A stretch of 64,000 bases of DNA. It comes from Deltaproteobacteria bacterium (GTDB lineage: Bacteria > Desulfobacterota > GWC2-55-46). Below are positions 5,985 to 63,041 of this stretch, piece by piece (position 1 is the first letter of the stretch; every line of letters starts with the position of its first letter). Both the position numbers and the translations under genes were made by a program. Under the pieces are notes generated by a model that saw nothing but the letters and a program-made list of their open reading frames with translations, made no database searches and was not told the origin of the DNA. Location of the stretch: the NCBI GenBank assembly GCA_016234935.1, contig JACRNL010000011.1:129472-193471 (forward strand), given 5' to 3'.

Positions 5985-6165
5985 CAAACTAAACCGGTGT
6001 GGTTGCACCTGTGCACGAACCTGCAGCGGCATTAAAGTTTTTTGGCCGCCTGCGGCGGAGCAAAGTTAAATGGTTGTATTTTGACTTTAGCCGTGCGCAG
6101 CACCTGCGGTGAGCAAAGTTTAAGGTGTATCATTTCAAACTTTAGCGTGCGCAGCACCTTTTTTG
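5985..6165. repeat. Composite intergenic repeat, copy A: three degenerate tandem units ending ctgcggNgagcaaagtt plus a terminal ttttttgaaaaaa palindrome
   Basis: Seen directly. Its reverse complement recurs at 44160-44300 (for example ggccgcctgcggcggagcaaag here versus ctttgccccgccgcaggcggcc there). Confidence 0.8.
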
Positions 6166-27286: not shown

Positions 27287-28434
27287 CAATAACGAACTGC
27301 TCCATATTTAAAAGATATCCTGTTTCTTTCGGTTCATCCGGCGTCAGCGCGGGCTATGAGATACTCGTCGGCAGGGGTATAACCCCGGCCATTGCAGATT
27401 TCCTCGCGCAAAAGACGAAGGACGACAGAGTCATTGTCGTCTGCGACGACTATTTCAAGGGGCGCATCGCTTCTTTGACAGATGCGCTCGCAAAGGCCGG
27501 CTTTAGCGTAAACGTTTACAGCTTCGAGGGCGGCAAGCACCACAAGAACATCAACGAGGCAATGCGCATATACGAGGCGCTGGAAAAGAGTGACTTCGCG
27601 CGCGATTCGACCATGATAGCCGTCGGAGGCGGCGTCATAGGAGACCTCGCGGGCTTCGTGGCAAGCACCTACTTGAGGGGGATGAACCTCATACACGTCC
27701 CGTCGTCGCTGACCGCGATGATAGACTCTTCCATAGGCGGCAAGGTCGCCATAAACTTCAGAAAGACGGTCAACGCCATCGGCAACTACTACCATCCGAT
27801 ATTAAATGTCATTGACCTTGACTTTATGGACACGCTGCCGCCGAGGGATTATCTTGCCGGGCTTGCGGAGATAATCAAATGCGCGGTGATAGCCGACAAA
27901 GAGCTTTTCGATTACCTCGACGTCAACTCCGAAGCGGTGCTCCGGCGTGAGGAAGTTGCGCTTTTGAAGATAATCTACCGCGCCATAGAGATAAAGCTCG
28001 ACCATGTGAGGGATGACGTAAGGGAGCAGAGTATAAGGCTGAAGCTGAACTACGGGCATACGATGGGCCATGCCGTGGAGATTTCTACCGGCATGTTTGA
28101 AGAGGTCTACAGGCACGGCGAGGGCGTTGCCATCGGCATGGTCGGGGCGGCGCATATCGCGAGGGCGTTTTTAAAGCAGGGCGATGAAATATTAAAGAGG
28201 CATGAGGCGGTGCTTGAAAAATACGGCCTGCCGGTTAAGTGCGCATCCGGCGCTATCGGGTTTGATGCTGATTTGCTAAAAAAGGAATGCCTTAGAAATA
28301 TCTTCAAGGATAAAAAGAAAAAGGACGCGATGCTTCGCTTTGTCCTGCCGGTTGCGATAGGCAGGTGCGAGGTATACGCGGGGATACCGGACGAGATGCT
28401 TCAGAAGGCGTTTGACTACATAATAGGCCAATGA
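27283..28434 (+). CDS. 3-dehydroquinate synthase-like sugar-phosphate cyclase family protein
   Basis: GGGVIGDLAGFVASTYLRGMNLIHVPSSLTAMIDSSIGGKVAINF is the DHQS-family NAD and metal site. 383 aa. Sits inside the glycan operon, not an aro context. Confidence 0.75.
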   Translation: MTITNCSIFKRYPVSFGSSGVSAGYEILVGRGITPAIADFLAQKTKDDRVIVVCDDYFKGRIASLTDALAKAGFSVNVYSFEGGKHHKNINEAMRIYEALEKSDFARDSTMIAVGGGVIGDLAGFVASTYLRGMNLIHVPSSLTAMIDSSIGGKVAINFRKTVNAIGNYYHPILNVIDLDFMDTLPPRDYLAGLAEIIKCAVIADKELFDYLDVNSEAVLRREEVALLKIIYRAIEIKLDHVRDDVREQSIRLKLNYGHTMGHAVEISTGMFEEVYRHGEGVAIGMVGAAHIARAFLKQGDEILKRHEAVLEKYGLPVKCASGAIGFDADLLKKECLRNIFKDKKKKDAMLRFVLPVAIGRCEVYAGIPDEMLQKAFDYIIGQ

Positions 28435-28462
28435 TGACGGTGAAAGACATTATTTCAAAATT

Positions 28463-28511
28463 CCCCTTAACCCCTTGAAGGGGCTGAGCCCCCTCAGGGG
28501 GTTAAGCCCCC
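28463..28511. repeat. Dispersed palindromic repeat family R1 (ccccttgaagggg / cccccTCAggggg units)
   Basis: Seen directly. Related copies at 33708-33734, 37877-37913 (inverted) and 58748-58788. Here followed by ggggggaag + T7, which is terminator-like. Confidence 0.85.
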
Positions 28512-28539
28512 TTTTACAAAGGGGGGAAGTTTTTTTATT

Positions 28540-28616
28540 CCTCCCCAGCACCACTTTCCGTTACTGGCATATGTATCTAATAGAAATGTTGGCGCCGGAA
28601 AGTGGTGCTGGGGAGG
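28540..28616. promoter_or_regulatory. Perfect 21-bp-stem inverted repeat (cctccccagcaccactttccg ... cggaaagtggtgctggggagg) with a 35-nt AT-rich loop, 16 nt upstream of the SDR gene start
   Basis: Seen directly. A degenerate short-loop version recurs at 63253-63305. Confidence 0.7.
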
Positions 28617-28632
28617 GTAGGGAGGATTTACG

Positions 28633-29421
28633 ATGTCGCAGTGTGGCAGGGGGGAGATGACGGACAAAAGATTTTCCATAAAAGACAGGGTCTGCGTTGT
28701 AACAGGCGCGGGCAAGGGCATCGGCAGGGAGACTGCAAGGCTCTTTTATGAAGAAGGGGCTTTCCTCGCGCTCATCACGAGGGACGGCAAAGACCTGCAA
28801 TCGCTTAAGACGGAGCTTGACCTTGATGACAGGCGCGTCCTCTTGTTTGAGGGCGACGTGTCCGATGAAAAGACCGTCAAAAGATTCATTGCCGAGGCCG
28901 CTGAAAAATTCGGCAGGATAGACGTCCTTGTAAACAACGCGGGCATGAGGTTTAGAAAAAAGCTCCTTGAGACAACGCCTGACGAATGGGCGCGGGTGAT
29001 GAACACGAACCTTACGAGCGTCTACCTCATGTGCCGCGAGGCAGGCCCGCACATGATAAGGCAGAAATGGGGCAGGGTCATAAACATCGCGTCCGTCATC
29101 GGAACGCTCGGCCTTGCCGAGCTTACGGCGTACGGCGCGTCAAAGGGCGGGATGCTAACGTTCACGAAGTGCCTCGCGCTCGAATGGGCGGGGCATAACA
29201 TAAACGTCAACGCCGTTGCCCCGGGCTTTTGCGAGACATCCTACGCTGAAAGTTTTAAAAAGAAAGAGGAGCTTTATAAATTCACCATCGAGAGAACGCC
29301 GCAGAAAAGGTGGGGCTCGTCAGCCGACGTGGCGGCGGCATGCCTTTTCCTGGCCTCCGGGGAGGCATCCTTCATAACCGGAGAGGTGCTGAGCGTGGAC
29401 GGCGGGTGGAGCGCATGGTAG
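28633..29421 (+). CDS. SDR family oxidoreductase (FabG-like)
   Basis: TGAGKGIGRE Rossmann motif and catalytic Y/K region (AYGASK). SD gggagg 7 nt upstream. Confidence 0.8.
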   Translation: MSQCGRGEMTDKRFSIKDRVCVVTGAGKGIGRETARLFYEEGAFLALITRDGKDLQSLKTELDLDDRRVLLFEGDVSDEKTVKRFIAEAAEKFGRIDVLVNNAGMRFRKKLLETTPDEWARVMNTNLTSVYLMCREAGPHMIRQKWGRVINIASVIGTLGLAELTAYGASKGGMLTFTKCLALEWAGHNINVNAVAPGFCETSYAESFKKKEELYKFTIERTPQKRWGSSADVAAACLFLASGEASFITGEVLSVDGGWSAW

Positions 29422-33707: not shown

Positions 33708-33734
33708 CCCCTTGAAGGGGCTGAGCCCCCTTAG
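33708..33734. repeat. Repeat family R1 copy (partial)
   Basis: ccccttgaaggggctgagcccccttag; compare 28463-28511. Confidence 0.8.
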
Positions 33735-33769
33735 CCCTCTTTTCCAAAGGTGGGAAATAAAAATATGAG

Positions 33770-36652: not shown

Positions 36653-37825
36653 ATGCCTAAAATACTCTACATTACGGCGCGTTCCGATTACGGCGGCGGG
36701 CCTGAGCAGATGCACCTCTTGATCAAGAGGCTCTCCGCCGCATTCAAGGTCTACGTGGCCTGTCCAAACGACGTCCCTTACTTCGCAATCTTCGGAAAGT
36801 ATGCCGAGGTGCTGGAGATACCCTGCAGGAAGTTTTCGGTCGCAAGCCTTATCGCCCTTTACAAAGCGGTCAGGGAAAAGGATATAGACATAATTCATTC
36901 GCACGGCAGGGGGGCGGGCGTGTATGCCAGGCTCCTTGGGGCCATGACCCGCAAACCCGTTGTCCATACCTTTCAGGGGGTGCATCTGTGGCACCTCAGC
37001 CCGCTAAGGAAATTTCTTTATCTCTTTGTTGAAAAGGCCTTTGCCAGGGTCACGGACGTATTCATCAACGTCTCGGAGTCCGAGAGAAAGACCTGCGAAA
37101 ACGCCAATTTTTATTCCAGGAAGTTCAGGGTCGTGCCAATCGGCGTCGAGGTGCCGCCCATGCGCCGCCCCCCGCTTGATACACGCGAGGGCAGGGTAAG
37201 GCCTGACAGGCGCAGGTTTACGCTGATAAATATTTCGAGGCTCTCTTTCGAGAAGGGCGTTGACGTGCTTTTAAAAGTGGTAAAGGCGCTGGCGGACTCA
37301 GGGGCTGACTTCAAGCTCCTCCTCGCGGGCGACGGCCCTGAGCGCAAAAAGCTCGAAAAGGACGCAAAGGCCCTTGGCATCGAAAAATACGTGGTGTTCT
37401 ACGGGGCCGTCAGCGACGCGGACAAGCTGAGGCTCCTTGAGTCAGCCCACGTCTTCATGAACACGTCAAGGTGCGAGGGCATGCCGATCGCCGTTCTTGA
37501 GGCGATGGCAAGGTCTTTGCCCGTCGTTGCCACGGACGTGGCCGGCAACAAAGACGTGGTCATAAGCGGGGAAAACGGCTTTCTGTTCGACATAACGAGG
37601 CCTGAGGAAGGGGCGCGGCGGATAGTCGAGCTTATGAGAACCCCGGCGCTCTACGAACAGATGTCAACGGGCGCCTACCGGACCATGACTGAAAAATTCT
37701 CCGTTGAAACGATGTGCGAAAGCACGAAGGAAATATATATGTCCCTGCTTGGCGCCGTCAAAAAAAAAGGCGCGCTGCCGGGCAAGGCATACAGGGATAA
37801 GGCCGCAGCGGTCAATGCAAAATAA
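36653..37825 (+). CDS. Family 4 glycosyltransferase (GT4, GT-B)
   Basis: 390 aa. E-x7-E-type C-terminal region ...GMPIAVLEAMARSLPVVATDVAGNKDVV. Overall length fits RfaG/WcaL-like GT4. Confidence 0.8.
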   Translation: MPKILYITARSDYGGGPEQMHLLIKRLSAAFKVYVACPNDVPYFAIFGKYAEVLEIPCRKFSVASLIALYKAVREKDIDIIHSHGRGAGVYARLLGAMTRKPVVHTFQGVHLWHLSPLRKFLYLFVEKAFARVTDVFINVSESERKTCENANFYSRKFRVVPIGVEVPPMRRPPLDTREGRVRPDRRRFTLINISRLSFEKGVDVLLKVVKALADSGADFKLLLAGDGPERKKLEKDAKALGIEKYVVFYGAVSDADKLRLLESAHVFMNTSRCEGMPIAVLEAMARSLPVVATDVAGNKDVVISGENGFLFDITRPEEGARRIVELMRTPALYEQMSTGAYRTMTEKFSVETMCESTKEIYMSLLGAVKKKGALPGKAYRDKAAAVNAK

Positions 37826-37876
37826 GCGGCCCCCGCTTAGGGCACGCGAGGGCAGGAACGGTTTGATAGGACGAGG

Positions 37877-37913
37877 GTTGAACCCCCTGAGGGGGTTCGA
37901 CCCCTTCAAGGGG
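37877..37913. repeat. Repeat family R1 copy, inverted orientation
   Basis: aaccccctgagggggttcgaccccttcaagggg is the reverse complement of the 28463 element. Confidence 0.8.
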
Positions 37914-37918
37914 CATGA

Positions 37919-44159: not shown

Positions 44160-44300
44160 GCTTACCTTTTTTGAAAAAAAAGGCGCTGTGCACGGCTAAA
44201 GGTGCTGGCGCACGGCTAAAGCGTGAATGTAATCCTTTAGCTTTGCTCACCGCAGGTGCTTTGCCCCGCCGCAGGCGGCCAAAAAACTTTAATTATAGCG
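44160..44300. repeat. Composite intergenic repeat, copy B (inverted relative to 5985-6165)
   Basis: ggtgctggcgcacggctaaa..ctttgctcaccgcaggtgc..ctttgccccgccgcaggcggcc is the reverse complement of the copy-A units. Shares the ttttttgaaaaaa end. Confidence 0.8.
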
Positions 44301-49680: not shown

Positions 49681-49821
49681 AGAACAGGGGCAGGTCGATG
49701 ACGACTTCCTTATCTCCTCCCCCCTTGCGGGGCAGGGTGGGGGAGGCAGGATGGTGGATTTAGGGGTATACTTATAGGTAAGAGTAAGAGGACGCATGAA
49801 TCGGCCTTATGAGATAAAAAC

Positions 49822-50925: not shown

Positions 50926-51209
50926 GAATCGGGGATACAGACATTCGGAGCCTGCCCCTGCGTGTATGCCCTCGCGTGCCCCTGCTCCCCGGTAGATACA
51001 TTCGAGGACATGTTAAAACGTGCGGGGGCAGGCTGAAGCGGGGGATGGCTTTTCCATATTGTCATTCCCGATGTTTTTATCGGGAATCTAATTCCGTGAT
51101 TTGAGAAGATAAAATTAAAACCAGATCCCCGATAAAGACATTCGGGGATGACAGCAGGGCAGCGTTCGGGGATGACGGAAAAAAGAAGACATAATAAGGA
51201 GCAGGTCGA

Positions 51210-52010: not shown

Positions 52011-54398
52011 TTGACAGGCCGGCTAATGGACAAAATTGCCGCATTAAAATACGGCCTGCTGATACTGGCTTCTTTAGTTTTTTTTTGCGTTCCTGCTTTT
52101 TCAGAGGAATCGGTGGTCGTTGTCCTTAATGTAAGGCTCAACATGGTGGACAAGGGTGATTTTTACATGATGGCCGCCCCTGACGGGGACTATCTTGTGA
52201 AGACCGAAGAGCTTAAAAAGATGGGTTTCAAGGCCCCGCGGGGCGCGGCTTCCATTATAGAAGGCGCCGAACATATCTCCCTGAAGTCCATGCAGGGCGT
52301 CAGGTTCGTCTACAACGAGGACGCCGTCGCCCTCGAAATCACCGCCGAGCCGTCGCTTCTTGGCAAGGTTATCATTGATTACGCCGGGACCATCTACAAG
52401 GAAAATGTCGAATACACCGGCAGCGGCTTCAGCGCGTTTTTCAACTACAAGCTCAACTATAACGCAGGCATGGATTTTAAATACGAAAGCTCCGTCATGA
52501 CAAATGAAGCGGGGGTGCGCGGCGCCGGATTTCTGCTAAAGACGGATACCGTGTATACGGACACAAACAGCGGCGAAACATTCCGAAGACTCCAGAGCAA
52601 CGTCACCTACGACAGAAGGAATGAACTGCAGCGCATAACGGGCGGCGACTTCTTCGCCTCTTCCGGCGACTTCGGCACCACCTTGAACATGGGCGGCCTC
52701 AGCATAGCCAAGATATACAGGATGGACCCCTATTTTATAAAGCAGCCGCTTTTTAACGTTACCGGCCAGATGGCGACTCCATCGGAGGTCGAGGTCTATC
52801 TTGACGGCGCGCTTATAAGGAAGGAAAAGCTGGCGCCGGGAGAGTTTGAGCTAAGGAATATATCGGCATACAGCGGGGCGGGCAATTATGAGATACTTAT
52901 CAGGGACTCATATGGAAGAGAGCAGAGGATGAGGTATCCGTTCTATTATGCCGATCAGCTCTTAAAGAGCGGTCTGCATGAATACAGCTATAACGCCGGC
53001 CTCATCAGGAAGGATTACGGGGTAAAGAGCGCGGAGTACGGCTCGCCGGCATTTTCCGCGCTGCACAGGTACGGTTTCAGCGACATCCTTACGGTCGGCG
53101 CCGGCGCCGAAGCCTCCGGCGGGACCTATGTGCTTACCCCCCAGATTTCTTACGGCATGGCTGATATAGGCGTATTGGACGTGGATCTGTCCGGCAGCGA
53201 GGACGAGACAATGGGAGAGGGCTGGGCCGGCCTGGCGAGTTACAGGTATGACGGAAGACCCATAAGCTCGAGGGTTATCTTCAGGCAATTCAACAAGGAG
53301 TATATGCGGCTGAGTTCAGCTCTTACCGGCGTGAGGACAAAGTTCGAGATAGGAGCCGGCATAAGCTACTCGCCGGGAAATCTCGGCGCCGCAAGCCTTG
53401 ATTATACCGCCACCAAGATCTACCATGGAGCGGAGAGGAGGACGACCTCCACGACCTATTCCATAAGCCCGTTCAGAGAGGCCATGCTCTCTTTTACATT
53501 AAGGAACAGGAGGACGAAGGCGCCTGAGGGCGATGAATCGGCCAATGAGTTGTTTGTCAATTTCAGCTATTATCCGTGGAAGGATATAAGCGCGTCCGTA
53601 AGCTGGCAAAGGTTAAAGGACGTTGACACGGAGACGGCCCAGATACAGAAGCCTGCGCCGACGGGAGAGGGCTACGGCTACAGGATGGCCGCCGCGAGGG
53701 TGGACGGCCCGGCGGAGCGCAGCACCACGGTTTCCCCGTACGTTCAGTATAACGGCCGCTACGCCAGGATTGTCGGTGAATTTAACGGGATCTACGGCGC
53801 CGCCGGCCAACGCTCGGAAAGGTCTGATCTGTCGGTTGCAGGAGGCATCGGATACGTCGGCGGCAGGCTGGGCCTCAGCCGCCCGATATTAGACAGCTTT
53901 GCCGTCGTGAAGGCGGACGGGCTGAAGGACGTGTCAGTAATGCGCAGCGGCCAGGAGATAGGCAAGACAGACTCTGCCGGCTACGCCTTCGTGCCTGAGC
54001 TTGTTTCATATGTTAATAATACGATAAATCTCGATATAACGGCCATCCCCATGGATTATGCCGTTCATGACGCCGGAAGGACCATAAATCCGGCTTTGAG
54101 GAGCGGCACGTATCTGGACTTTAATATAAGGAAGATACAGGCCGTCACCGGAAGATTAAGGATTAAATCAAAAGACGGCTCGATAAAAGACGCCGAGTTC
54201 TACGAGGTCAGCATGACGGTCAAGGGAGAGGAGCTGCTTTTACCTACCGGCAAGGCAGGAGAGTTTTATATTGAAAACATCCCTGCCGGGCAATACACGG
54301 CGGCTGCTCGCTACCCTGGCACGGCTTGCGCGTTTGAGATTGTAGTCCCGGAGAGCATGGAGACTATTGTGGATTTGGGAGAGGTATTCTGTGAATAG
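52011..54398 (+). CDS. Outer-membrane fimbrial usher
   Basis: 795 aa, signal peptide, beta-rich throughout. Positioned chaperone-usher-pilin. TTG start per the track; alternative ATG at 52026. Confidence 0.7.
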   Translation: MTGRLMDKIAALKYGLLILASLVFFCVPAFSEESVVVVLNVRLNMVDKGDFYMMAAPDGDYLVKTEELKKMGFKAPRGAASIIEGAEHISLKSMQGVRFVYNEDAVALEITAEPSLLGKVIIDYAGTIYKENVEYTGSGFSAFFNYKLNYNAGMDFKYESSVMTNEAGVRGAGFLLKTDTVYTDTNSGETFRRLQSNVTYDRRNELQRITGGDFFASSGDFGTTLNMGGLSIAKIYRMDPYFIKQPLFNVTGQMATPSEVEVYLDGALIRKEKLAPGEFELRNISAYSGAGNYEILIRDSYGREQRMRYPFYYADQLLKSGLHEYSYNAGLIRKDYGVKSAEYGSPAFSALHRYGFSDILTVGAGAEASGGTYVLTPQISYGMADIGVLDVDLSGSEDETMGEGWAGLASYRYDGRPISSRVIFRQFNKEYMRLSSALTGVRTKFEIGAGISYSPGNLGAASLDYTATKIYHGAERRTTSTTYSISPFREAMLSFTLRNRRTKAPEGDESANELFVNFSYYPWKDISASVSWQRLKDVDTETAQIQKPAPTGEGYGYRMAAARVDGPAERSTTVSPYVQYNGRYARIVGEFNGIYGAAGQRSERSDLSVAGGIGYVGGRLGLSRPILDSFAVVKADGLKDVSVMRSGQEIGKTDSAGYAFVPELVSYVNNTINLDITAIPMDYAVHDAGRTINPALRSGTYLDFNIRKIQAVTGRLRIKSKDGSIKDAEFYEVSMTVKGEELLLPTGKAGEFYIENIPAGQYTAAARYPGTACAFEIVVPESMETIVDLGEVFCE

Positions 54399-55343: not shown

Positions 55344-56945
55344 ATGGATAATGCGGGTGAGGCCGTCTATTACAGAAATAAAGTTCGCGGCAGAGCCGGC
55401 GTCAGGCAATGGATATTTTCAACCGACCATAAGCGCATAGGCGTTTTATACCTCGTCTCGGTTCTGGCCATGTTTTCGAGCGGCGTAGTCCTCGGCGTTC
55501 TTATGAGGCTGGAACTTCTAACGCCCGGGCCGACCCTGATGGGGCCGCAGACCTATAATTCCATGTTCACGCTTCACGGCGTGATAATGCTCTTTCTCTT
55601 TATCATCCCTGCCGCCCCCGGTGTGTTCGGAAACTTCTTCCTGCCCATACTCATCGGCGCAAACGACGTGGCCTTTCCGCGCCTGAACCTCCTTTCATGG
55701 TGGTTTTACATGGCAGGCGCGGCCATTGCCGTGGCTTCTATTTTAATCGGCGCGGGGCCGCCGGACACGGGCTGGACGTTTTACGCTCCGTACAGCCTCT
55801 TCACCGGGCAGGACGTTTCATTGGCCCTTTTTGCCGTCTTCGTGCTCGGCCTTTCGTCGGTGCTGACGGGCATAAATTTTATCGTCACAGTGCACAACAT
55901 GCGCGCGCCCGGCATGGGCTGGTTCAGGATGCCTCTGTTCGTGTGGTCTATCTACGCCACGGCGTGGATACAGGCCCTTGCCACGCCAGTTGTCGGCACG
56001 ACCTTTTTACTGGTGATAGCCGAAAGGTTTTTCGGCATAGGCGTATTCGATCCTGCAAAGGGAGGAGACCCGATACTGTATCAGCACCTTTTCTGGATAT
56101 ACTCCCATCCGGCGGTCTATATAATGATACTGCCGGCAATGGGGATTATCACCGAGATAATCCCCGTATTTGCCCGAAAGACGGTCTTCGGCTACCGGGC
56201 GATAGCGTATTCAAGCCTTGCGATAGCAGGGGTGGGCTCCCTCGTGTGGGGCCATCACATGTTCGTAAGCGGCTACTCCTACACGGCAGGGGTGCTCTTT
56301 TCGTTCTTTACCTTCCTCGTGGCCATACCGAGCGCGGTAAAGGTTTTTAATTGGATCGCCACCCTTCATAAAGGCTCGATAGTCTTTTCCACCCCCATGC
56401 TCTACGCCTTTTGCTTCATCTTCCTTTTTTCCATCGGAGGGCTGACCGGGCTTATGCTCGGCGCGCTTTCTATGAACGTCGTTTTGCACGGCACGTATTT
56501 TGTGGTGGGCCACTTCCACTACGTCAAGTTCGGCGGCGCGGGGTTTGCCTTTTTCGCGGGGCTTCATTATTGGTTCCCTAAGATGTCCGGCAGGCTCTAT
56601 AGCCGGATGAGGGCCAATATCGCGCTGTTTCTGTTGTTTGCCGGCTTTAACATGTTGTACTTTCCGATGTTCATCCTCGGCATCGAGGGCATGCCGAGGA
56701 GATACTTTGACGCTTTGCCGCAGTATCATTTCTGGCAGGCAGTGTCCATCGCGGGCTCGTGGGTGCTGGCGGCAGGCATTATACTGATGCTGGCCAATCT
56801 CGTCCACGCGCTTTTCAGGGGAGAAAAGGCCCCTGAAAACCCGTGGGCAGGGGCGACGCTTGAGTGGACTATCCCGTCACCGCCTGCCCATGAGAACTTC
56901 GTGAAAATCCCTGAGATAAGGCGCGGGCCGTATGATTACCGGTAG
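55344..56945 (+). CDS. ctaD: Cytochrome c oxidase subunit I (heme-copper oxidase, A-type)
   Basis: 533 aa, 12 TM. Conserved His ligands and WFFGHPEVY-equivalent region (FWIYSHPAVYIMILP), GHHMF. Confidence 0.9.
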   Translation: MDNAGEAVYYRNKVRGRAGVRQWIFSTDHKRIGVLYLVSVLAMFSSGVVLGVLMRLELLTPGPTLMGPQTYNSMFTLHGVIMLFLFIIPAAPGVFGNFFLPILIGANDVAFPRLNLLSWWFYMAGAAIAVASILIGAGPPDTGWTFYAPYSLFTGQDVSLALFAVFVLGLSSVLTGINFIVTVHNMRAPGMGWFRMPLFVWSIYATAWIQALATPVVGTTFLLVIAERFFGIGVFDPAKGGDPILYQHLFWIYSHPAVYIMILPAMGIITEIIPVFARKTVFGYRAIAYSSLAIAGVGSLVWGHHMFVSGYSYTAGVLFSFFTFLVAIPSAVKVFNWIATLHKGSIVFSTPMLYAFCFIFLFSIGGLTGLMLGALSMNVVLHGTYFVVGHFHYVKFGGAGFAFFAGLHYWFPKMSGRLYSRMRANIALFLLFAGFNMLYFPMFILGIEGMPRRYFDALPQYHFWQAVSIAGSWVLAAGIILMLANLVHALFRGEKAPENPWAGATLEWTIPSPPAHENFVKIPEIRRGPYDYR

Positions 56946-56961
56946 ACGCGGCGAGGAAGAT

Positions 56962-57573
56962 ATGGGCAAAACAGGCGTTAGAGACGATGCGCGCGGCGCG
57001 GCGGCTCGCCTGGGCATGTGGCTTTTTATAGCCACGGAGGCCTTTTTCTTCCTGGCTCCGCTTCTCCTTTATGCCGCGTATCGATACAGGTATGCATATG
57101 ATTTTCGCGCCGCGGGAGGAGAGCTTAACCTTTTTACCGGCGCGGCCAACACCGCCGTGCTTCTTACGAGTTCCCTTACCATGGCCCTCGCGGTCAATGC
57201 GGGGCAAAGGGGGGATAAGAGGCTTACGGCTGTCCTGCTCGCGGCGACGATTATCCTTGGGTCTGTCTTTCTCGTGATTAAGTATTTCGAATGGACAGCC
57301 AAGATATCCCACGGCATCTATCCAAATTCCGAAACGTTTTCAGGCCGCGCGCGCGGCGAGGTGATATTCTGGGGGCTTTATTTTTTTATTACCGGCCTTC
57401 ACGGCCTCCACGTGTTCATCGGCGTATGCCTTTTAACGGTCATGCTTTTTATGAGGCTTGCCAACGCGTCCGGAGGGAGATACCCGGCGAGGCTTGAGAA
57501 CTGCGGCCTCTACTGGCATGCCGTAGACGTCATCTGGATATATATTTTCCCGTTTTTCTATCTTATGGGATAG
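56962..57573 (+). CDS. ctaE: Cytochrome c oxidase subunit III
   Basis: GLYWHAVDVIWIYIFPFFYL signature. About 5 TM. Start at ATG 56962. Confidence 0.85.
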   Translation: MGKTGVRDDARGAAARLGMWLFIATEAFFFLAPLLLYAAYRYRYAYDFRAAGGELNLFTGAANTAVLLTSSLTMALAVNAGQRGDKRLTAVLLAATIILGSVFLVIKYFEWTAKISHGIYPNSETFSGRARGEVIFWGLYFFITGLHGLHVFIGVCLLTVMLFMRLANASGGRYPARLENCGLYWHAVDVIWIYIFPFFYLMG

Positions 57574-57579
57574 GAGATT

Positions 57580-57861
57580 GTGATGGAGAGAAAGGCTGAT
57601 TATAAGAGCCTTATTATTGTTTGGGCGGGACTAATATTGCTCACGTGGCTTTCTGCCGGCGTCTCCGGCGCCGGCCTTGCGGCGGAGGCGCGTGTGGCTG
57701 TGCCGCTGCTTATCGCAATGCTCAAGGCGTCTTTGGTCTTTTACTTCTTCATGCGCTTCAGGGTGGGCGGGGAGATATTCTGGGTGGTGCTTCCGGCAGG
57801 GCTGATAACGGTAATAATCATTACGCTTCTTGTATTTTCCGACGTGGGTTACAGGTATTGA
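57580..57861 (+). CDS. Prokaryotic cytochrome c oxidase subunit IV (CoxD-like), 93 aa, 3 TM
   Basis: Size, position after subunit III and three hydrophobic helices. Confidence 0.65.
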   Translation: MMERKADYKSLIIVWAGLILLTWLSAGVSGAGLAAEARVAVPLLIAMLKASLVFYFFMRFRVGGEIFWVVLPAGLITVIIITLLVFSDVGYRY

Positions 57862-57906
57862 AGACGCATTGACATTTACGCCGCTAAAAGGCCGGCGGTA
57901 AAAGAG

Positions 57907-58524
57907 GTGCTTTTAAGAATGCTGTTAAGCCAGGCAAGCAATATAGGAAAACTCACTGACGGCGCGTTCATGGCAATTACTGCCATTTGCGTGGCGCTTT
58001 TCCTGACAATAAATATCATTATGCTGTATTTCGCCGTTAAATACAGGAGATCCAGGCATCCGCAAAGCGCGGATATTGATGGAAGCGTTCTGCTGGAGCT
58101 TGCATGGACGGTCATCCCGGCGGCCCTTGTCGTGTTCATGTTTTACCTTGGGCTTAAGGGCTACGCCATCCGGAAGGACGCGCCCGGAGACGCGCTCGCG
58201 GTGAATGTGCGCGGGCAGATGTGGTCATGGATATTTCAGTATGCCAACGGCAAGGAAAGCAGCGCTCTGGCATTGCCCCTTAACAGGGCCGTGAAGTTCA
58301 ATCTGACCTCCGGCGACGTCATCCACAGCTTTTTCATCCCTGCGTTCGGGATAAAGGGGGACGTGGTCCCGGGCAGGCAAAACACCCTCTGGGCCGTCCC
58401 GATTGAAAAGGGTTCTTTTGACGTCTTTTGCACGGAATACTGCGGCGCCGGACATTCGATTATGCTGTCAAAGGCTGTTGTGATGGACGAAAAGGATTTC
58501 GAGGAGTGGTATGGGGCGCGGTGA
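57907..58524 (+). CDS. ctaC: Cytochrome c oxidase subunit II (CuA cupredoxin)
   Basis: Two TM helices, then a cupredoxin domain with CuA motif H...CTEYCGAGHSIM. No fused cytochrome c domain. Confidence 0.85.
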   Translation: MLLRMLLSQASNIGKLTDGAFMAITAICVALFLTINIIMLYFAVKYRRSRHPQSADIDGSVLLELAWTVIPAALVVFMFYLGLKGYAIRKDAPGDALAVNVRGQMWSWIFQYANGKESSALALPLNRAVKFNLTSGDVIHSFFIPAFGIKGDVVPGRQNTLWAVPIEKGSFDVFCTEYCGAGHSIMLSKAVVMDEKDFEEWYGAR

Positions 58525-58550
58525 GATATTTTCCGGCAAGGTTGAAAAAA

Positions 58551-58625
58551 TGGAGGCGGCGAGCGGACTCGAACCGCTGAATCGCAGTTTTGCAGACTGC
58601 TCCCTTGCCACTTGGGTACGCCGCC
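58551..58625 (-). tRNA. tRNA-Cys (anticodon GCA)
   Basis: Reverse complement folds as: acceptor GGCGGCG/CGCCGCC; anticodon stem GCAGT/ACTGC with loop CUGCAAA; T-arm AGCGG-TTCGAGT-CCGCT; discriminator U73; encoded CCA. Confidence 0.85.
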
Positions 58626-58747
58626 GTTTGTTTATCCTGTAATCACTATAAACAGCGGCAATGAACTTTGTCAAGACTTAAAGTTTTTTGCGAGTCTCGC
58701 GCTGCACATTTTTGTTTTTTAAGATATACTCGTATTGAACAAGGTCG

Positions 58748-58788
58748 CCCCTTGAAGGGGTTCAACCCCCTGAGGGCGGTTCAACGCC
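58748..58788. repeat. Repeat family R1 copy
   Basis: ccccttgaaggggttcaaccccctgagggcggttcaacgccg. Confidence 0.8.
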
Positions 58789-59017
58789 GCAACCATACAC
58801 CATCCAGTTCATCTGCGTCAAAACACACCTTAGATCATCTCCGATAGGCATTTCACATGGGCACTGCTGCGTTCCCGGCGCCTTGCAAGCGGTTTTGCCG
58901 CGGCCGAATGAACCGGCCTGTGCAAACGCCCCCACCCTGCCCTCCCCCATCAAGGGGGAGGAGATAAGGAAGTGGTCATCTGAACGCGGGGTTTTAATCC
59001 ACCACAGTCCCCCTTAG

Positions 59018-59036
59018 AAAAAAAAAGGGGGGGGGG
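59018..59036. repeat. Homopolymeric tract A9G10, 45 nt upstream of the HAMP gene start
   Basis: gaaaaaaaaagggggggggg, seen directly. Confidence 0.9.
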
Positions 59037-59047
59037 AAGCCTAAATT

Positions 59048-59068
59048 CCCCTCTTTTCTAAAGAGGGG
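59048..59068 (+). promoter_or_regulatory. Perfect 9-bp-stem, 3-nt-loop hairpin (cccctcttt-tct-aaagagggg) in the 5' leader, 12 nt before ATG 59081
   Basis: Seen directly. Confidence 0.6.
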
Positions 59069-59080
59069 TTAGGGGAGATT

Positions 59081-59689
59081 ATGGGAAAAAAGAAAAAAGA
59101 AGCTTCCGTAATAGACCGTGCCTTCAAGATACGCTTCGGCGTGAAGCTGTGCCTGTTTGCCACGTCGGCGCTTCTGGCGGCGACGGCCTTTGTGTATTCC
59201 GTCACCTCTCAAAAGCTCGGCGGCGGCTATGCCGAGGCTGTCTACACGATAGCAAATCTCAAGGTGAAAATCTTTCCGCTTATCTTCGCTTCGCTCTACA
59301 CGGCAGGGATACTTGCTTTTGCAACTATCTCCATCGCGGTTATCTCCGTATTTTTTTCACACAGGATAGCCGGACCCATCTACCGCATGGAAAGGAGCCT
59401 GGAGGCCATTGAGTCAGGAGACCTCACGACCACGACGAAGCTCCGCTCCGGGGATCAGCTTATGCCTGTTGCCGAGGATATGAACGGGATGGTCAGGGCG
59501 CTTAACCACAGGGTGAAAAGCATGCAAGAAGCCCTCGACGAGATTAAGGGCGACGCCCAAAGGCTTTCGGCCCTTTTGCAGGAAGAAGGACTCGCGGCCG
59601 GAGGCGCAATGGAAAAGGCAGAGGCGCTTAAAGGCGGCGTTGAGAAGCTTAAAAAATCCTCTGTGGTCGTGAAACCGAAGGAATATTAA
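59081..59689 (+). CDS. Membrane protein with 2 TM + HAMP domain + C-terminal coiled coil, no output domain
   Basis: Two TM helices, HAMP-like HRIAGPIYRMERSLEAIESGDLTTTTKL...NGMVRALNHRV, then a helical E/K-rich tail. Confidence 0.65.
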   Translation: MGKKKKEASVIDRAFKIRFGVKLCLFATSALLAATAFVYSVTSQKLGGGYAEAVYTIANLKVKIFPLIFASLYTAGILAFATISIAVISVFFSHRIAGPIYRMERSLEAIESGDLTTTTKLRSGDQLMPVAEDMNGMVRALNHRVKSMQEALDEIKGDAQRLSALLQEEGLAAGGAMEKAEALKGGVEKLKKSSVVVKPKEY

Positions 59690-59690
59690 G

Positions 59691-60494
59691 GTGAAGAAGT
59701 TTTGGCTCATTACGCTCCTGCTGGCGGTTATAGCGCTGTTCGGGGTTTCCGACAGGTTTGTTTCCTCCATATGGCTGAGCTACCACAGTTTCGAGGGCAG
59801 ATGTAATGACTGCCATCTTGTCGTGCCAAAGCCCGGCGAAGGGCCGGGCACGCTTATGAAGAACGTAACCGTCCTTTGCACCTCCTGCCACGCGGAGATC
59901 AAGAATTTTTCGCATCCGGTTGACATGGCGCCGTCCATGCCGGTGCCGGTAAACTTTCCGCTGGACTGGAAAGGGACGGTAACGTGCGTGACGTGCCATC
60001 CCGTCCATGACTACGGACACGGCGAGGCCCATTTAAGGAGCGCTGCGTCGGGCGAGGGGTTTTGCGCGAACTGCCACGGCGATATTGATTCAAAGATGCA
60101 CGCTGCGTCCATCGGCACCGCACACCTATCGGCTTTTCAGGCGGACAGATTCGTAAGGACGCAGGCATCTGTCGATGAGCTTTCCCTTAAGTGCCTCTCC
60201 TGCCACGACTCCCTTGTGGGAAGAGGCGTAGAGGTCGAAAGCAAGGCCGCGACCGAGGGTTACCATGAGGCAAACCAGATAGGGCTTTCTCATCCCATCG
60301 GAGTGTCTTACCTTGAGGCAAAGCGGCTTTATTTTGGCGCGTACAGGGACATTGACAAATTGCCGCCGGAGATACATCTTTTCGGGGGCGTTATAGGCTG
60401 CGGCACGTGCCACGACCCGTATTCAAAGCGGCATTATGAGCTTGTCATGTCGAACGAGATAAGCGCCCTGTGCCTTGCGTGCCATGTAAAGTAG
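59691..60494 (+). CDS. Multiheme c-type cytochrome (7 CxxCH motifs)
   Basis: CNDCH, CTSCH, CVTCH, CANCH, CLSCH, CGTCH, CLACH. Signal peptide. GTG start. Confidence 0.85.
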   Translation: MKKFWLITLLLAVIALFGVSDRFVSSIWLSYHSFEGRCNDCHLVVPKPGEGPGTLMKNVTVLCTSCHAEIKNFSHPVDMAPSMPVPVNFPLDWKGTVTCVTCHPVHDYGHGEAHLRSAASGEGFCANCHGDIDSKMHAASIGTAHLSAFQADRFVRTQASVDELSLKCLSCHDSLVGRGVEVESKAATEGYHEANQIGLSHPIGVSYLEAKRLYFGAYRDIDKLPPEIHLFGGVIGCGTCHDPYSKRHYELVMSNEISALCLACHVK

Positions 60495-60612
60495 GGTGCC
60501 GGGCAATTTTATTAATAGCGCTTTAATACTGCTTTAATGACTCTGTATTAATATGTGTTGACGTCTTAATGGGTTGATTTTTTCCATTAACTATGTTAAT
60601 TTTTAAGGGCGT

Positions 60613-61230
60613 ATGAAAAAAGGCCAATATCCGAAATACAGGAGACGTAATTTTTTCATCAAGAGGCATTTGCAGGGAAAGTTTGTGGCAGGGTTTACAA
60701 TCTTCGTGCTCGCGGGGATAATACTGAACCTGCTGCTTGCGTATTACCTGATAGACTCGCGCCTCACTGAGGAGATATACAGGATACATCTAACGGTAAG
60801 GTCGACCTCGGAGCTGGCGTGGCCGGTGCTTTGGAAGCTTTCGCTCGTGACGGTATGCGTGGGTTTTTTCGCGGCCGTCGGCATAGGATACCACCTGACG
60901 CGCCGGGTCGAGGTGCCTGTTCTGGATTTTATTGGAAGCGTCAGAAGCGCCGCCGGCGCGGACTTCTCGAACAGGTTCGCCAAGACGGGATTTAACGGCC
61001 TGGAAGACCTGCGCGTCTTCTATAACAGGATGGCGCATTCTATCGAAAAAAGGCTCTGTGCCGTCCATGATTCGGCGGTGGAAATGGGAAAGAGCTGTGA
61101 GAAAGTCAGCCGCCTGGCCGCCAAAAAGGCCTTGATGCGGGCTGATATTGAAGAGTTGAGAAAAGAGCTCATGGGCATCGAAGGCGCCGAGTTGAAGGCG
61201 CGCAGGGAATTGGCGCGATTCAAGGTTTAA
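60613..61230 (+). CDS. Membrane 2 TM + HAMP + coiled-coil protein (paralog of 59081-59689)
   Basis: Same architecture. HAMP-like YHLTRRVEVPVLDFIGSVRSAAGADFSNRF...LRVFYNRMAHSI. Confidence 0.6.
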   Translation: MKKGQYPKYRRRNFFIKRHLQGKFVAGFTIFVLAGIILNLLLAYYLIDSRLTEEIYRIHLTVRSTSELAWPVLWKLSLVTVCVGFFAAVGIGYHLTRRVEVPVLDFIGSVRSAAGADFSNRFAKTGFNGLEDLRVFYNRMAHSIEKRLCAVHDSAVEMGKSCEKVSRLAAKKALMRADIEELRKELMGIEGAELKARRELARFKV

Positions 61231-61275
61231 AGCCGGCACGCGCCGGTACGAGAAAAAACGTATTGAGGGCTTAGC

Positions 61276-62403
61276 ATGAGAAAGGCCGTGTATGTATTCA
61301 TGTTGTTGCTTCTTATGGCGCCGGCTTTCGCCGGGACGCTTCATGCGGGCGACTGGCCGATGTTCCTGAAAGACGGGGAGCATTCATCCTATGCCGATGA
61401 CGCGCCCCTTCCGCCGTATGACGTAAAGTGGCGCTTCAGCGCGAAAGGGCCGTTCTATTCCTCTCCCATCGTCTACAAGAAAAAGGTTTTTGCCGGTTCC
61501 TACGACAAAAATATGTATGCCCTTGACGCCGGCACCGGCAAGGTTGTCTGGAGCTTTGTCTCGGAGGACGCTATACTCGGCACTCCTGCCGCGTTCAAGG
61601 ACGCCGTCTACTTCGCCACGAAGGCCGGTAAGGTCTACGCCCTTGCCGTTGACACCGGAAAGCTCATCTGGACCTTCGATGCCGAAGCGGGCGTGATGAC
61701 CTCTCTGCTCGTTGTGGACGATATCGTCTATTTCGGCGCGCAGGACCTTTATTTATATGCCGTTGACGCTAAGAGCGGCAAGCGCCTCTGGCGCCTGCGC
61801 GTGCCTGACACAAGCATATACAGCGGGATATATTCCTCTCCGGTGTATTATGGCGGGTCGGTGTTGGTTTCCGGGAAGAACGGGATCATATACTCGGTCG
61901 AGGCCAAGAGCATGGCGAGGAATTGGTCTAAGAGGGTTATGGCCGCAATGTACTCTTCCCCTGTCGTAAAAGACGGCGTAGTATATGTTTCCACCTACGG
62001 GAAAAAGATGTTCGCGCTGGACGTCAAGACAGGCAAGAACGTCTGGCAAAGGGAGCTTGAGGGCGAGTTTACGTATGCCTCGCCGGTAGTTATAAACGGC
62101 CGCGTATATCAAGGGCTTAAAAACGGCCATATAATGGTGCTTGATACGGCCAAGGGTCTTGTTAAGGGCAATATAAATCTGGGCGCCGCGGTTGATGCCA
62201 CTCCTGTCGGCACATCTTCCGGCATGCTTTTAGCCGGGTGTGCCGACGGGATGTTTTATGCGCTTGACGCGGCAAGCGGCGCCGTCAAGTGGAAGTTCGA
62301 AACCGATGGGGCCATTCATGCGTCTCCCGCGGTCGCAGGGGACGCCATATACGTCTCCACGGTGGAAGGCAGCCTCTACGCTTTTACGCCGCAAAAAAAA
62401 TAA
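61276..62403 (+). CDS. PQQ-like (BamB-type) beta-propeller repeat protein, secreted
   Basis: Signal peptide. Repeated ...G.VY.G..DG.LYALDA.TGK..W... blades (about 8). Confidence 0.8.
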   Translation: MRKAVYVFMLLLLMAPAFAGTLHAGDWPMFLKDGEHSSYADDAPLPPYDVKWRFSAKGPFYSSPIVYKKKVFAGSYDKNMYALDAGTGKVVWSFVSEDAILGTPAAFKDAVYFATKAGKVYALAVDTGKLIWTFDAEAGVMTSLLVVDDIVYFGAQDLYLYAVDAKSGKRLWRLRVPDTSIYSGIYSSPVYYGGSVLVSGKNGIIYSVEAKSMARNWSKRVMAAMYSSPVVKDGVVYVSTYGKKMFALDVKTGKNVWQRELEGEFTYASPVVINGRVYQGLKNGHIMVLDTAKGLVKGNINLGAAVDATPVGTSSGMLLAGCADGMFYALDAASGAVKWKFETDGAIHASPAVAGDAIYVSTVEGSLYAFTPQKK

Positions 62404-62426
62404 CGGTATTTGAGAGAGTGTTAGGC

Positions 62427-63041
62427 ATGACCGCATCTAAAAAAATATCGGTGTTTATCCTGCCTTTTGTCCTTGCCGCATGCGCGGCGGCGTTTGCCGC
62501 CGGCGTCTCATCGGCGGCGGATGCCCCGGCTGTTCCTGCTGCCGCGCCTAAGCCTCCGTATACCGCCATTGAAGCGGTAACAACGATCATAGACCCGCAC
62601 ACGCAGATAAGCGACGAGGGACATATCCTCTGGGAAAAATGCATAATCTGCCACAGGAATGTGCCGGACTTGAAGAAAGAGAAGTCCATAAGCGACGTAA
62701 CGCTCCGTTATGCAAATGAAATGAAGGATCTGTGTCTTGGATGTCATATTGACAGGAAGCACCCCGGGACAGAAGGCGCAAGCGTCATGATGAGCGCCGC
62801 GGAGGCGCCGGATCATCTTGTCGTGCCTTCCCAGACAGTCAAGCAGAATTTGCGTCTCATGCTCAAAAGCACTCCTACGATATTCCCGTTTGATCCCAAG
62901 ACAGGAAAGGTCACATGCGTTACCTGCCACAATCCTCACGAAAAGGGTCTGCAGTCGGGCAAAGCCGGCTGGGGGGCCGGCTCTTTCAAGAGGCTTCGCG
63001 CCGAAGGTGATGATATCTGCCAATACTGCCACAGGAAATAA
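62427..63041 (+). CDS. Multiheme c-type cytochrome (4 CxxCH motifs)
   Basis: CIICH, CLGCH, CVTCH, CQYCH. Signal peptide MTASKKISVFILPFVLAACAAAFA. Confidence 0.8.
   Translation: MTASKKISVFILPFVLAACAAAFAAGVSSAADAPAVPAAAPKPPYTAIEAVTTIIDPHTQISDEGHILWEKCIICHRNVPDLKKEKSISDVTLRYANEMKDLCLGCHIDRKHPGTEGASVMMSAAEAPDHLVVPSQTVKQNLRLMLKSTPTIFPFDPKTGKVTCVTCHNPHEKGLQSGKAGWGAGSFKRLRAEGDDICQYCHRK

Follow-up and report, generated by a model that had tools for sequence, protein, structure and literature searches.

Immediately ahead of an operon that encodes a HAMP membrane protein and multihaem cytochromes, the 64-kb stretch of DNA analysed here (the window) carries an A9G10 homopolymeric tract and a perfect hairpin. 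A preliminary description had read the tract as a possible source of phase-variable expression, and the neighbouring tRNA gene as a possible integration site, which raises the question of how these structures came to lie before the start codon and what they might do there. From the anatomy of the spacer, the related alleles and the other repeats of the window, we consider it probable that tract and hairpin together represent a strain-specific array of lineage-specific palindromic repeats, situated in the leader of the operon.

ARAGORN and Rfam agreed on a minus-strand tRNA-Cys gene (Table 1), and the spacer separating it from the ATG at 59081 extends over 455 bp (58626-59080), exactly as previously described. 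Since the tRNA gene lies on the minus strand, this spacer is 5' of both the tRNA and the operon, and thus constitutes a divergent promoter region, in which the tRNA has a strong, near-consensus promoter of its own. On the other side of the tRNA, a complete aa3-type haem-copper oxidase operon (subunits I, III, IV and II; 55344-58524) ends 26 bp from the tRNA 3' end, in convergent orientation.

Table 1. Features of the spacer between tRNA-Cys and the HAMP/cytochrome operon, in window coordinates.
Feature	Position	Strand	Description
tRNA-Cys (anticodon GCA)	58551..58625	-	ARAGORN; Rfam RF00005, 61.1 bits; directed leftward, toward the end of the cox operon
tRNA promoter, sigma-70-like	58645..58674 (58674..58645)	-	TTGACA-N18-TATAGT, 11/12 matches, ~20 nt 5' of the tRNA; kept in four related alleles
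Candidate HAMP/cytochrome operon promoter	58703..58730	+	TGCACA-N16-TATACT; promoter scan
Insertion 1	58748..58784		37 nt; palindromic modules CCCCTTgAAGGGG and CCCCCTgAGGG; missing from L002, L003 and L005
Conserved leader core	58785..58892 (with 58700-58747)	+	Allele alignment, promoter scan
Promoter-like site in leader core	58821..58792	-	TTGACG-N18-TATGGT
Insertion 2	58927..58980		54 nt; 'R' palindromic element, CCCCCACCCTGCCCTCCCCC-loop-GGGGGAGGAGATAAGGAAGTGGTCATC; -24.5 kcal/mol, z = -2.2
Insertion 3	58992..59075	+	84 nt, GGGG ambiguity at both edges; carries the A9G10 tract and the hairpin
Hairpin module A	59009..59039	+	CCCCCTT-ag-A9-G10-AAG; folds at -12.2 kcal/mol
A9 and G10, candidate hypermutable simple repeat	59018..59036	+	A9 59018-59026, G10 59027-59036
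Hairpin module B	59040..59073	+	Core CCCCTCTTT-tct-AAAGAGGGG at 59048-59068, extended by CCUAA/UUAGG
SD GGGGAG and start codon	59072..59083	+	SD 59072-59077; ATG 59081; start and N-terminus kept in relatives
First two operon genes	59081..60494	+	202-aa membrane HAMP protein; 267-aa multihaem cytochrome

The candidate operon promoter lies within TTTTTGTTTTTTAAGATATACT, a block that is invariant in the relatives according to the allele alignment, and the relatives' version of the site reads TTAACA or TTAACT-N16-TATACT. If this site is used, the operon would have a 5' UTR of about 344 nt, the transcription start being placed from the promoter-like sequence, and the A9G10 tract would sit within this long 5' UTR, about 290 nt downstream of the presumed start. 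Identity of the leader core to its relatives is 82-91%, approximately that of the coding sequence, which gives little reason to suspect an RNA gene hidden in it. Together, its two parts (58700-58747 and 58785-58892) form a non-coding block of about 155 nt that carries promoter-like sites on both strands and matches no Rfam family; it may correspond to the promoter and leader of the operon, or to a second tRNA promoter.

A number of other features were sought in the spacer. A scan of 58400-59300 gave no terminator-like site on either strand (that is, no GC-rich stem directly before a U-run), and Rfam searches, both at the gathering threshold and with E relaxed to 10, returned nothing beyond the tRNA but noise: the best non-tRNA match reached 18.9 bits, the gathering score being 80, and no riboswitch, leader or sRNA family passed. 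By eye, the spacing in CATGGGCACTGCTGCGTT is wrong for a sigma-54 -24/-12 motif, and ends like those of integron attC sites (RYYYAAC/GTTRRRY) do not fit. Two small ORFs of the spacer, a plus-strand one (58668-58847) and a minus-strand one (58762-58953), were set aside as non-coding, since divergent alleles, or insertions of a length not divisible by three, disrupt them.

The A9G10 tract itself is present as reported, at 45-63 nt upstream of the ATG (against the approximately 45-60 bp given earlier), and is an outlier for the window. Among G or C runs in the 64 kb, G10 is the longest and the only one of at least 8; the next two are G7, and C runs reach 6 at most. Under independent base draws, 0.19 G runs of at least 10 are expected per window, and 6e-7 occurrences of A9G10; base composition and chance therefore do not account for the tract. 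It lies outside any reading frame, and its A9 and G10 runs are both above a published length cut-off for slippage-prone homopolymers; G10 is intrinsically slippage-prone and its length may drift. Other homopolymers of the window include an A9 at 37760-37768 and a T9 at 52078-52086.

To place the spacer among its relatives, we assembled a set of alleles (L002-L006) by a protein search with the HAMP protein of the window, followed by contig look-ups. L002 has 93% protein identity to the window HAMP protein, and L005 and L006 belong to the same 90%-identity cluster as L002, while L003 and L004 have 75% and 56% identity, respectively. A scan of species-representative genomes with the same protein found nothing close, the sole match being 28% identical and belonging to Pirellulaceae. 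All contigs that reach far enough upstream (all but L006) start in the 5' half of a minus-strand tRNA-Cys and continue into the same operon. This adjacency persists in relatives down to 56% protein identity, and must be old, because every contig reaching upstream has it. The contigs of L002, L003, L004 and L005, which are short-read assemblies from different samples, all end near the same point in tRNA-Cys, close to the anticodon; these shared breaks likely reflect tRNA k-mers common to co-occurring populations, and variable sequence 3' of the tRNA is also possible.

In the five-allele alignment, the tRNA, its promoter, the plus-strand promoter block, the leader core and the start codon are kept, and the remaining differences are discrete palindromic insertions. 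Around a kept promoter and leader core of about 190 nt, the four closely related alleles, which come from other metagenomes, thus vary in small palindromic elements located just 5' of the ATG. The simplest alleles are L002 and L006, from which all three insertions of the window are missing; at the site of insertion 3 they simply read gaacgcgggg-aatca-ATG. L005 and L003 have other palindromic elements at this place, of the family represented in the window at 28540-28616, and L003 additionally carries two copies of the R element found in insertion 2, one of them bearing a nested CCCCTTCAAGGGG module. Comparison of the corresponding segments (58893-59075 in the window, L002:300-340, L003:290-560 and L005:245-353) shows that each of four close alleles has its own set of elements: one has none, another a single family, a third this family together with several R copies, and the fourth R and the 84-nt array. 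This distribution suggests either an insertion hotspot before the start codon or selection on expression of the operon; as judged from the alignment, the stretch just 5' of the start codon is a hotspot for the gain and loss of small palindromic repeats.

No second copy of the complete insertion 3 was found in the window or in JGI metagenomes. Its membership in a repeat family consequently rests on the likeness of its short modules to others. Metagenome scans with the tract at any length between fixed flanks gave 0 matches, as did scans with the conserved leader, and none of the other assemblies searched carries A9G10.

Modules resembling those that compose the insertions are found at several other places in the window. 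The preliminary description had noted copies of two repeats (R1 and R5) in the spacer, and two dispersed families are indeed represented there: one at 58747-58776, with further copies at 28471, 28489, 33708 and 37883, and one at 58935-58980, within insertion 2, with an inverted copy at 49697-49742. Repeat families D1, I1, I3 and I7 were recovered in the window. Perfect hairpins with arms of C4 or more and G4 or more number 11, against 1.2 in shuffled sequences. Apart from one at 51127, they lie in five non-coding clusters (28463-28525, 33708, 37883-37913, 58748 and 59009-59068), and these clusters sit just 5' of plus-strand gene starts.

The tract region contains the pattern CCCCCTT-N(2-10)-AAAGGGGGG-N(0-4)-AAG, which occurs twice in the window (28507 and 59009) and not at all in shuffles. 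The copy at 28507-28529 reads CCCCCTTTTACAAAGGGGGGAAG and that at 59009 reads CCCCCTTAG-A9-G10-AAG, each followed by an AT-rich stretch. A relative of module B is present as well: CCCCCTTAG-CCCTCTTTTCCAAAG is contiguous at 33726-33749, a few bases 5' of a gene start. Here CCCCCTTAG and CCCTCTTTTCYAAAG are adjacent, whereas at 59009 they are separated by 31 nt containing the tract. In the simplest reading, A9G10 corresponds to the loop and 3' arm of a hairpin of the form CCCCCTT/AAGGGGG, in which slippage would have lengthened both the A run and the G run.

Other parts of the window show comparable structures. The 198-nt gap between co-directional genes at 28434-28633 consists almost entirely of a chain of palindromes. 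It contains a T7 run, four C/G hairpins and an inverted repeat whose 21-bp arms (28540-28560 and 28596-28616) match perfectly; elements related to this inverted repeat lie in the L003 and L005 leaders. Elsewhere, 6031-6125 and 44181-44293, 38 kb apart, carry long inverted repeats that pair over 35 nt with 97% complementarity and over 36-41 nt with 78-83%. They are unrelated to the A9G10 insertion and may be copies of another dispersed element.

The hairpin that follows the tract had been described as perfect, and its core at 59048-59068 is indeed an exact 9-bp stem with a 3-nt loop, unique in the window. It is prolonged by the CCUAA/UUAGG pairing of 59040-59044 with 59069-59073, giving a whole of -17.6 kcal/mol (z = -2.0). 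The earlier claim that the hairpin abuts the SD holds, and the extended stem covers the first two G of the SD. The further suggestion was that the hairpin could occlude the SD. Folding predictions discriminate little among alleles and are weak evidence: predicted SD accessibility is 0.14 in the window, 0.22 in the insertion-free L002, 0.22 in L003 and 0.50 in L005. In silico folding of the putative full leader gave a mean unpaired probability of 0.12-0.16 for SD and AUG over tract lengths of G5-G14 and A5-A13, and the whole leader is no more stable than shuffles (z = -0.9).

Taken together, these data are best accommodated by the following scenario. The HAMP/multihaem-cytochrome operon would most likely be transcribed rightwards from near 58703-58730 through a long leader. 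This leader would have gained three small insertions drawn from short, lineage-specific palindromes in which a C-run faces a G-run on the opposite side, the third being a two-hairpin array of modules A and B. The A9G10 tract would be the loop and 3' arm of hairpin A, lengthened by replication slippage from an ancestral state of about A3G6, as at 28507, and the perfect hairpin would be module B, also met at 33726. On the mRNA, the modules would form stable stem-loops just 5' of the SD. We infer that their effect is probably a modest constitutive change, through mRNA stability or translation initiation, like that of REP-like hairpins elsewhere. A tract of this length could nevertheless be more than a passive by-product.

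The possibility raised by the preliminary description, that slippage in G10 or A9 switches or tunes the operon through promoter spacing or leader structure, has several points in its favour. G10 exceeds the homopolymer cut-off of 6 repeats applied in a survey of Neisseria, where about half of the variable repeats were intergenic (PMC5084427). No G/C run of the window is longer, its distance to the ATG is short, strains differ more in the region just before the ATG than anywhere else in the locus, and weak hexamers (TAGAAA/TTAGAA and TAAATT) flank the tract. However, these hexamers match at only 7-8 of 12 positions and stand 21-23 nt apart, so that 4-5 bases must go for a working spacing, and a standard promoter scan found nothing across the tract, that is, no sigma-70-like promoter spanning A9G10. 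The conserved promoter-like site far upstream would instead put the tract in the 5' UTR, where the predicted accessibility of the SD is flat over the range of tract lengths given above. A set of several G/C tracts, of the kind that contingency loci form, was not found within the 64 kb, no length variant occurred in the assemblies and metagenomes searched, and the closest alleles are without the whole segment. We therefore regard switching or tuning by slippage as unlikely, and it is very unlikely that the hotspot element with A9G10 is a true contingency switch for the multihaem-cytochrome operon, conferring phase-variable respiration. Were the tract such a switch, repeat-mediated phase variation would reach beyond host-associated pathogens into environmental respiration, with a phase-variable operon, possibly for extracellular electron transfer, in an uncultured deltaproteobacterium of groundwater type. 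The tract is a reasonable candidate hypermutable site with no positive sign of a regulatory switch among the features analysed; programmed on/off switching is not needed to explain it, and we judge the locus to be an ordinary leader colonised by repeats, in which this one site is a candidate for hypermutability.

An artefact of sequencing or assembly, such that the length of the tract or the 84-nt segment itself does not represent a single genotype, is quite unlikely. The tract length comes from metagenome assembly, because the window is MAG sequence (its HAMP protein is 100% identical to MBI5888800.1, encoded on a 266-kb contig of the MAG Deltaproteobacteria bacterium); homopolymers of about 10 are error-prone in both sequencing and consensus calling, and no independent assembly carries the segment. 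On the other hand, both edges of the segment are collinear with the relatives, it contains unique non-repetitive sequence, its modules resemble repeat modules elsewhere in the window, and the tract is internal to a long contig rather than at a contig end. Still less can be said for a structured leader in which an RNA G-quadruplex, or hairpins responsive to a protein or ligand, would gate the SD. Four G4 blocks are available (two from G10, with 59065-59068 and 59072-59075), and the extended stem of hairpin B reaches into the SD. Yet such a quadruplex needs a 28-nt loop and competes with the -17.6 kcal/mol hairpin, Rfam recovered no family even at permissive E values, and the 84-nt segment is missing from 93%-identical relatives with the same operon, so it is no conserved regulator; this makes a gating structure highly improbable. 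As for the tRNA, such genes are common integration sites, and the repeats and the operon might have arrived as the scar of a mobile element targeting tRNA-Cys; the breaks of related short-read contigs inside the tRNA could be taken in this sense, but we infer that k-mers shared by co-occurring populations explain them more simply. Integrases use the tRNA 3' end, whereas the spacer lies on the 5' side of this minus-strand gene. No repeat of the tRNA 3' end exists in the window, the neighbours are the cox and HAMP operons with no integrase, the tRNA-operon adjacency is kept down to 56% identity, and the operon itself is conserved in GWC2_55_46 beside haem-synthesis genes. A tRNA-linked genomic island, with an insert at the 3' end, a direct repeat and an integrase, was likewise sought and not found. 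Because of the strand, the missing 3'-end repeat, the neighbours and the synteny of relatives, the tRNA is not an integration landmark here, and we assign hardly any probability to an integration scar.

The repeat-colonised leader that we favour can be compared with known systems. The REP/BIME elements of Proteobacteria are similarly short GC-rich palindromes with stems of 6-9 bp, present in many copies in non-coding gaps, often in arrays mixed with other motifs, probably forming RNA hairpins and varying in presence among strains. Their definition was taken from PMC3733652, where a GTAG or CGTC tag defines the main REP superfamilies. By inspection, no consistent GTAG/CGTC tag flanks 28463-28530, 33708-33755, 37875-37915, 58748-58784 or 59009-59075. 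Moreover, unlike REP/BIME elements, the copies in the window lie just 5' of gene starts rather than mainly in 3' UTRs, and their stems are nearly pure C-runs and G-runs. Another comparison is offered by Correia elements and kindred small inverted-repeat insertions in the 5' UTRs of Neisseria: these too are small structured elements, present or absent between close strains right upstream of a gene, whose leader, and possibly expression, they alter. In contrast to them and to MITEs, insertion 3 has neither terminal inverted repeats nor a TA target duplication. Its ends (TTTTAATCC... and ...GGTTAGGGG) are not inverted repeats, and the sole edge feature is the 4-nt GGGG ambiguity; given the missing terminal inverted repeats, insertion 3 is not a strict MITE. 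Finally, homopolymer-mediated phase variation in promoters or leaders, as with the variable intergenic repeats of Neisseria meningitidis (PMC5084427; PMC5320596), resembles the present case, in which a G10 of slippage-prone length lies at most 65 nt 5' of a start codon. The present case differs in that the tract does not lie between recognisable -35 and -10 elements at a workable spacing, in the lack of observed length variants, in the lack of multiple loci in the window, and in the host, which is an uncultured environmental deltaproteobacterium.

If the favoured reading is correct, small palindromic repeats specific to one lineage would give a conserved sensor/cytochrome operon a differently built leader in each of the close strains. 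For the annotation of MAGs, such repeats are then to be expected directly 5' of start codons, and homopolymer lengths within them need caution.

The operon downstream is itself well conserved. Its HAMP match scores 24.3 bits, just below the Pfam cut-off of 25 bits, and the gene order is HAMP protein, seven-CXXCH cytochrome, a second small membrane protein, a PQQ-like beta-propeller protein and another multihaem cytochrome. The same operon is found in L002-L008, and is intact in the GWC2_55_46 genome (44% identity), where it lies beside the haem-synthesis genes mentioned above, without a tRNA. In the relatives L004, L007 and L008, the cluster corresponding to 59081-63041 additionally includes an NHL-repeat protein and a 728-aa cytochrome; conserved down to 44% identity, this cluster may represent a periplasmic or extracellular electron-transfer module.
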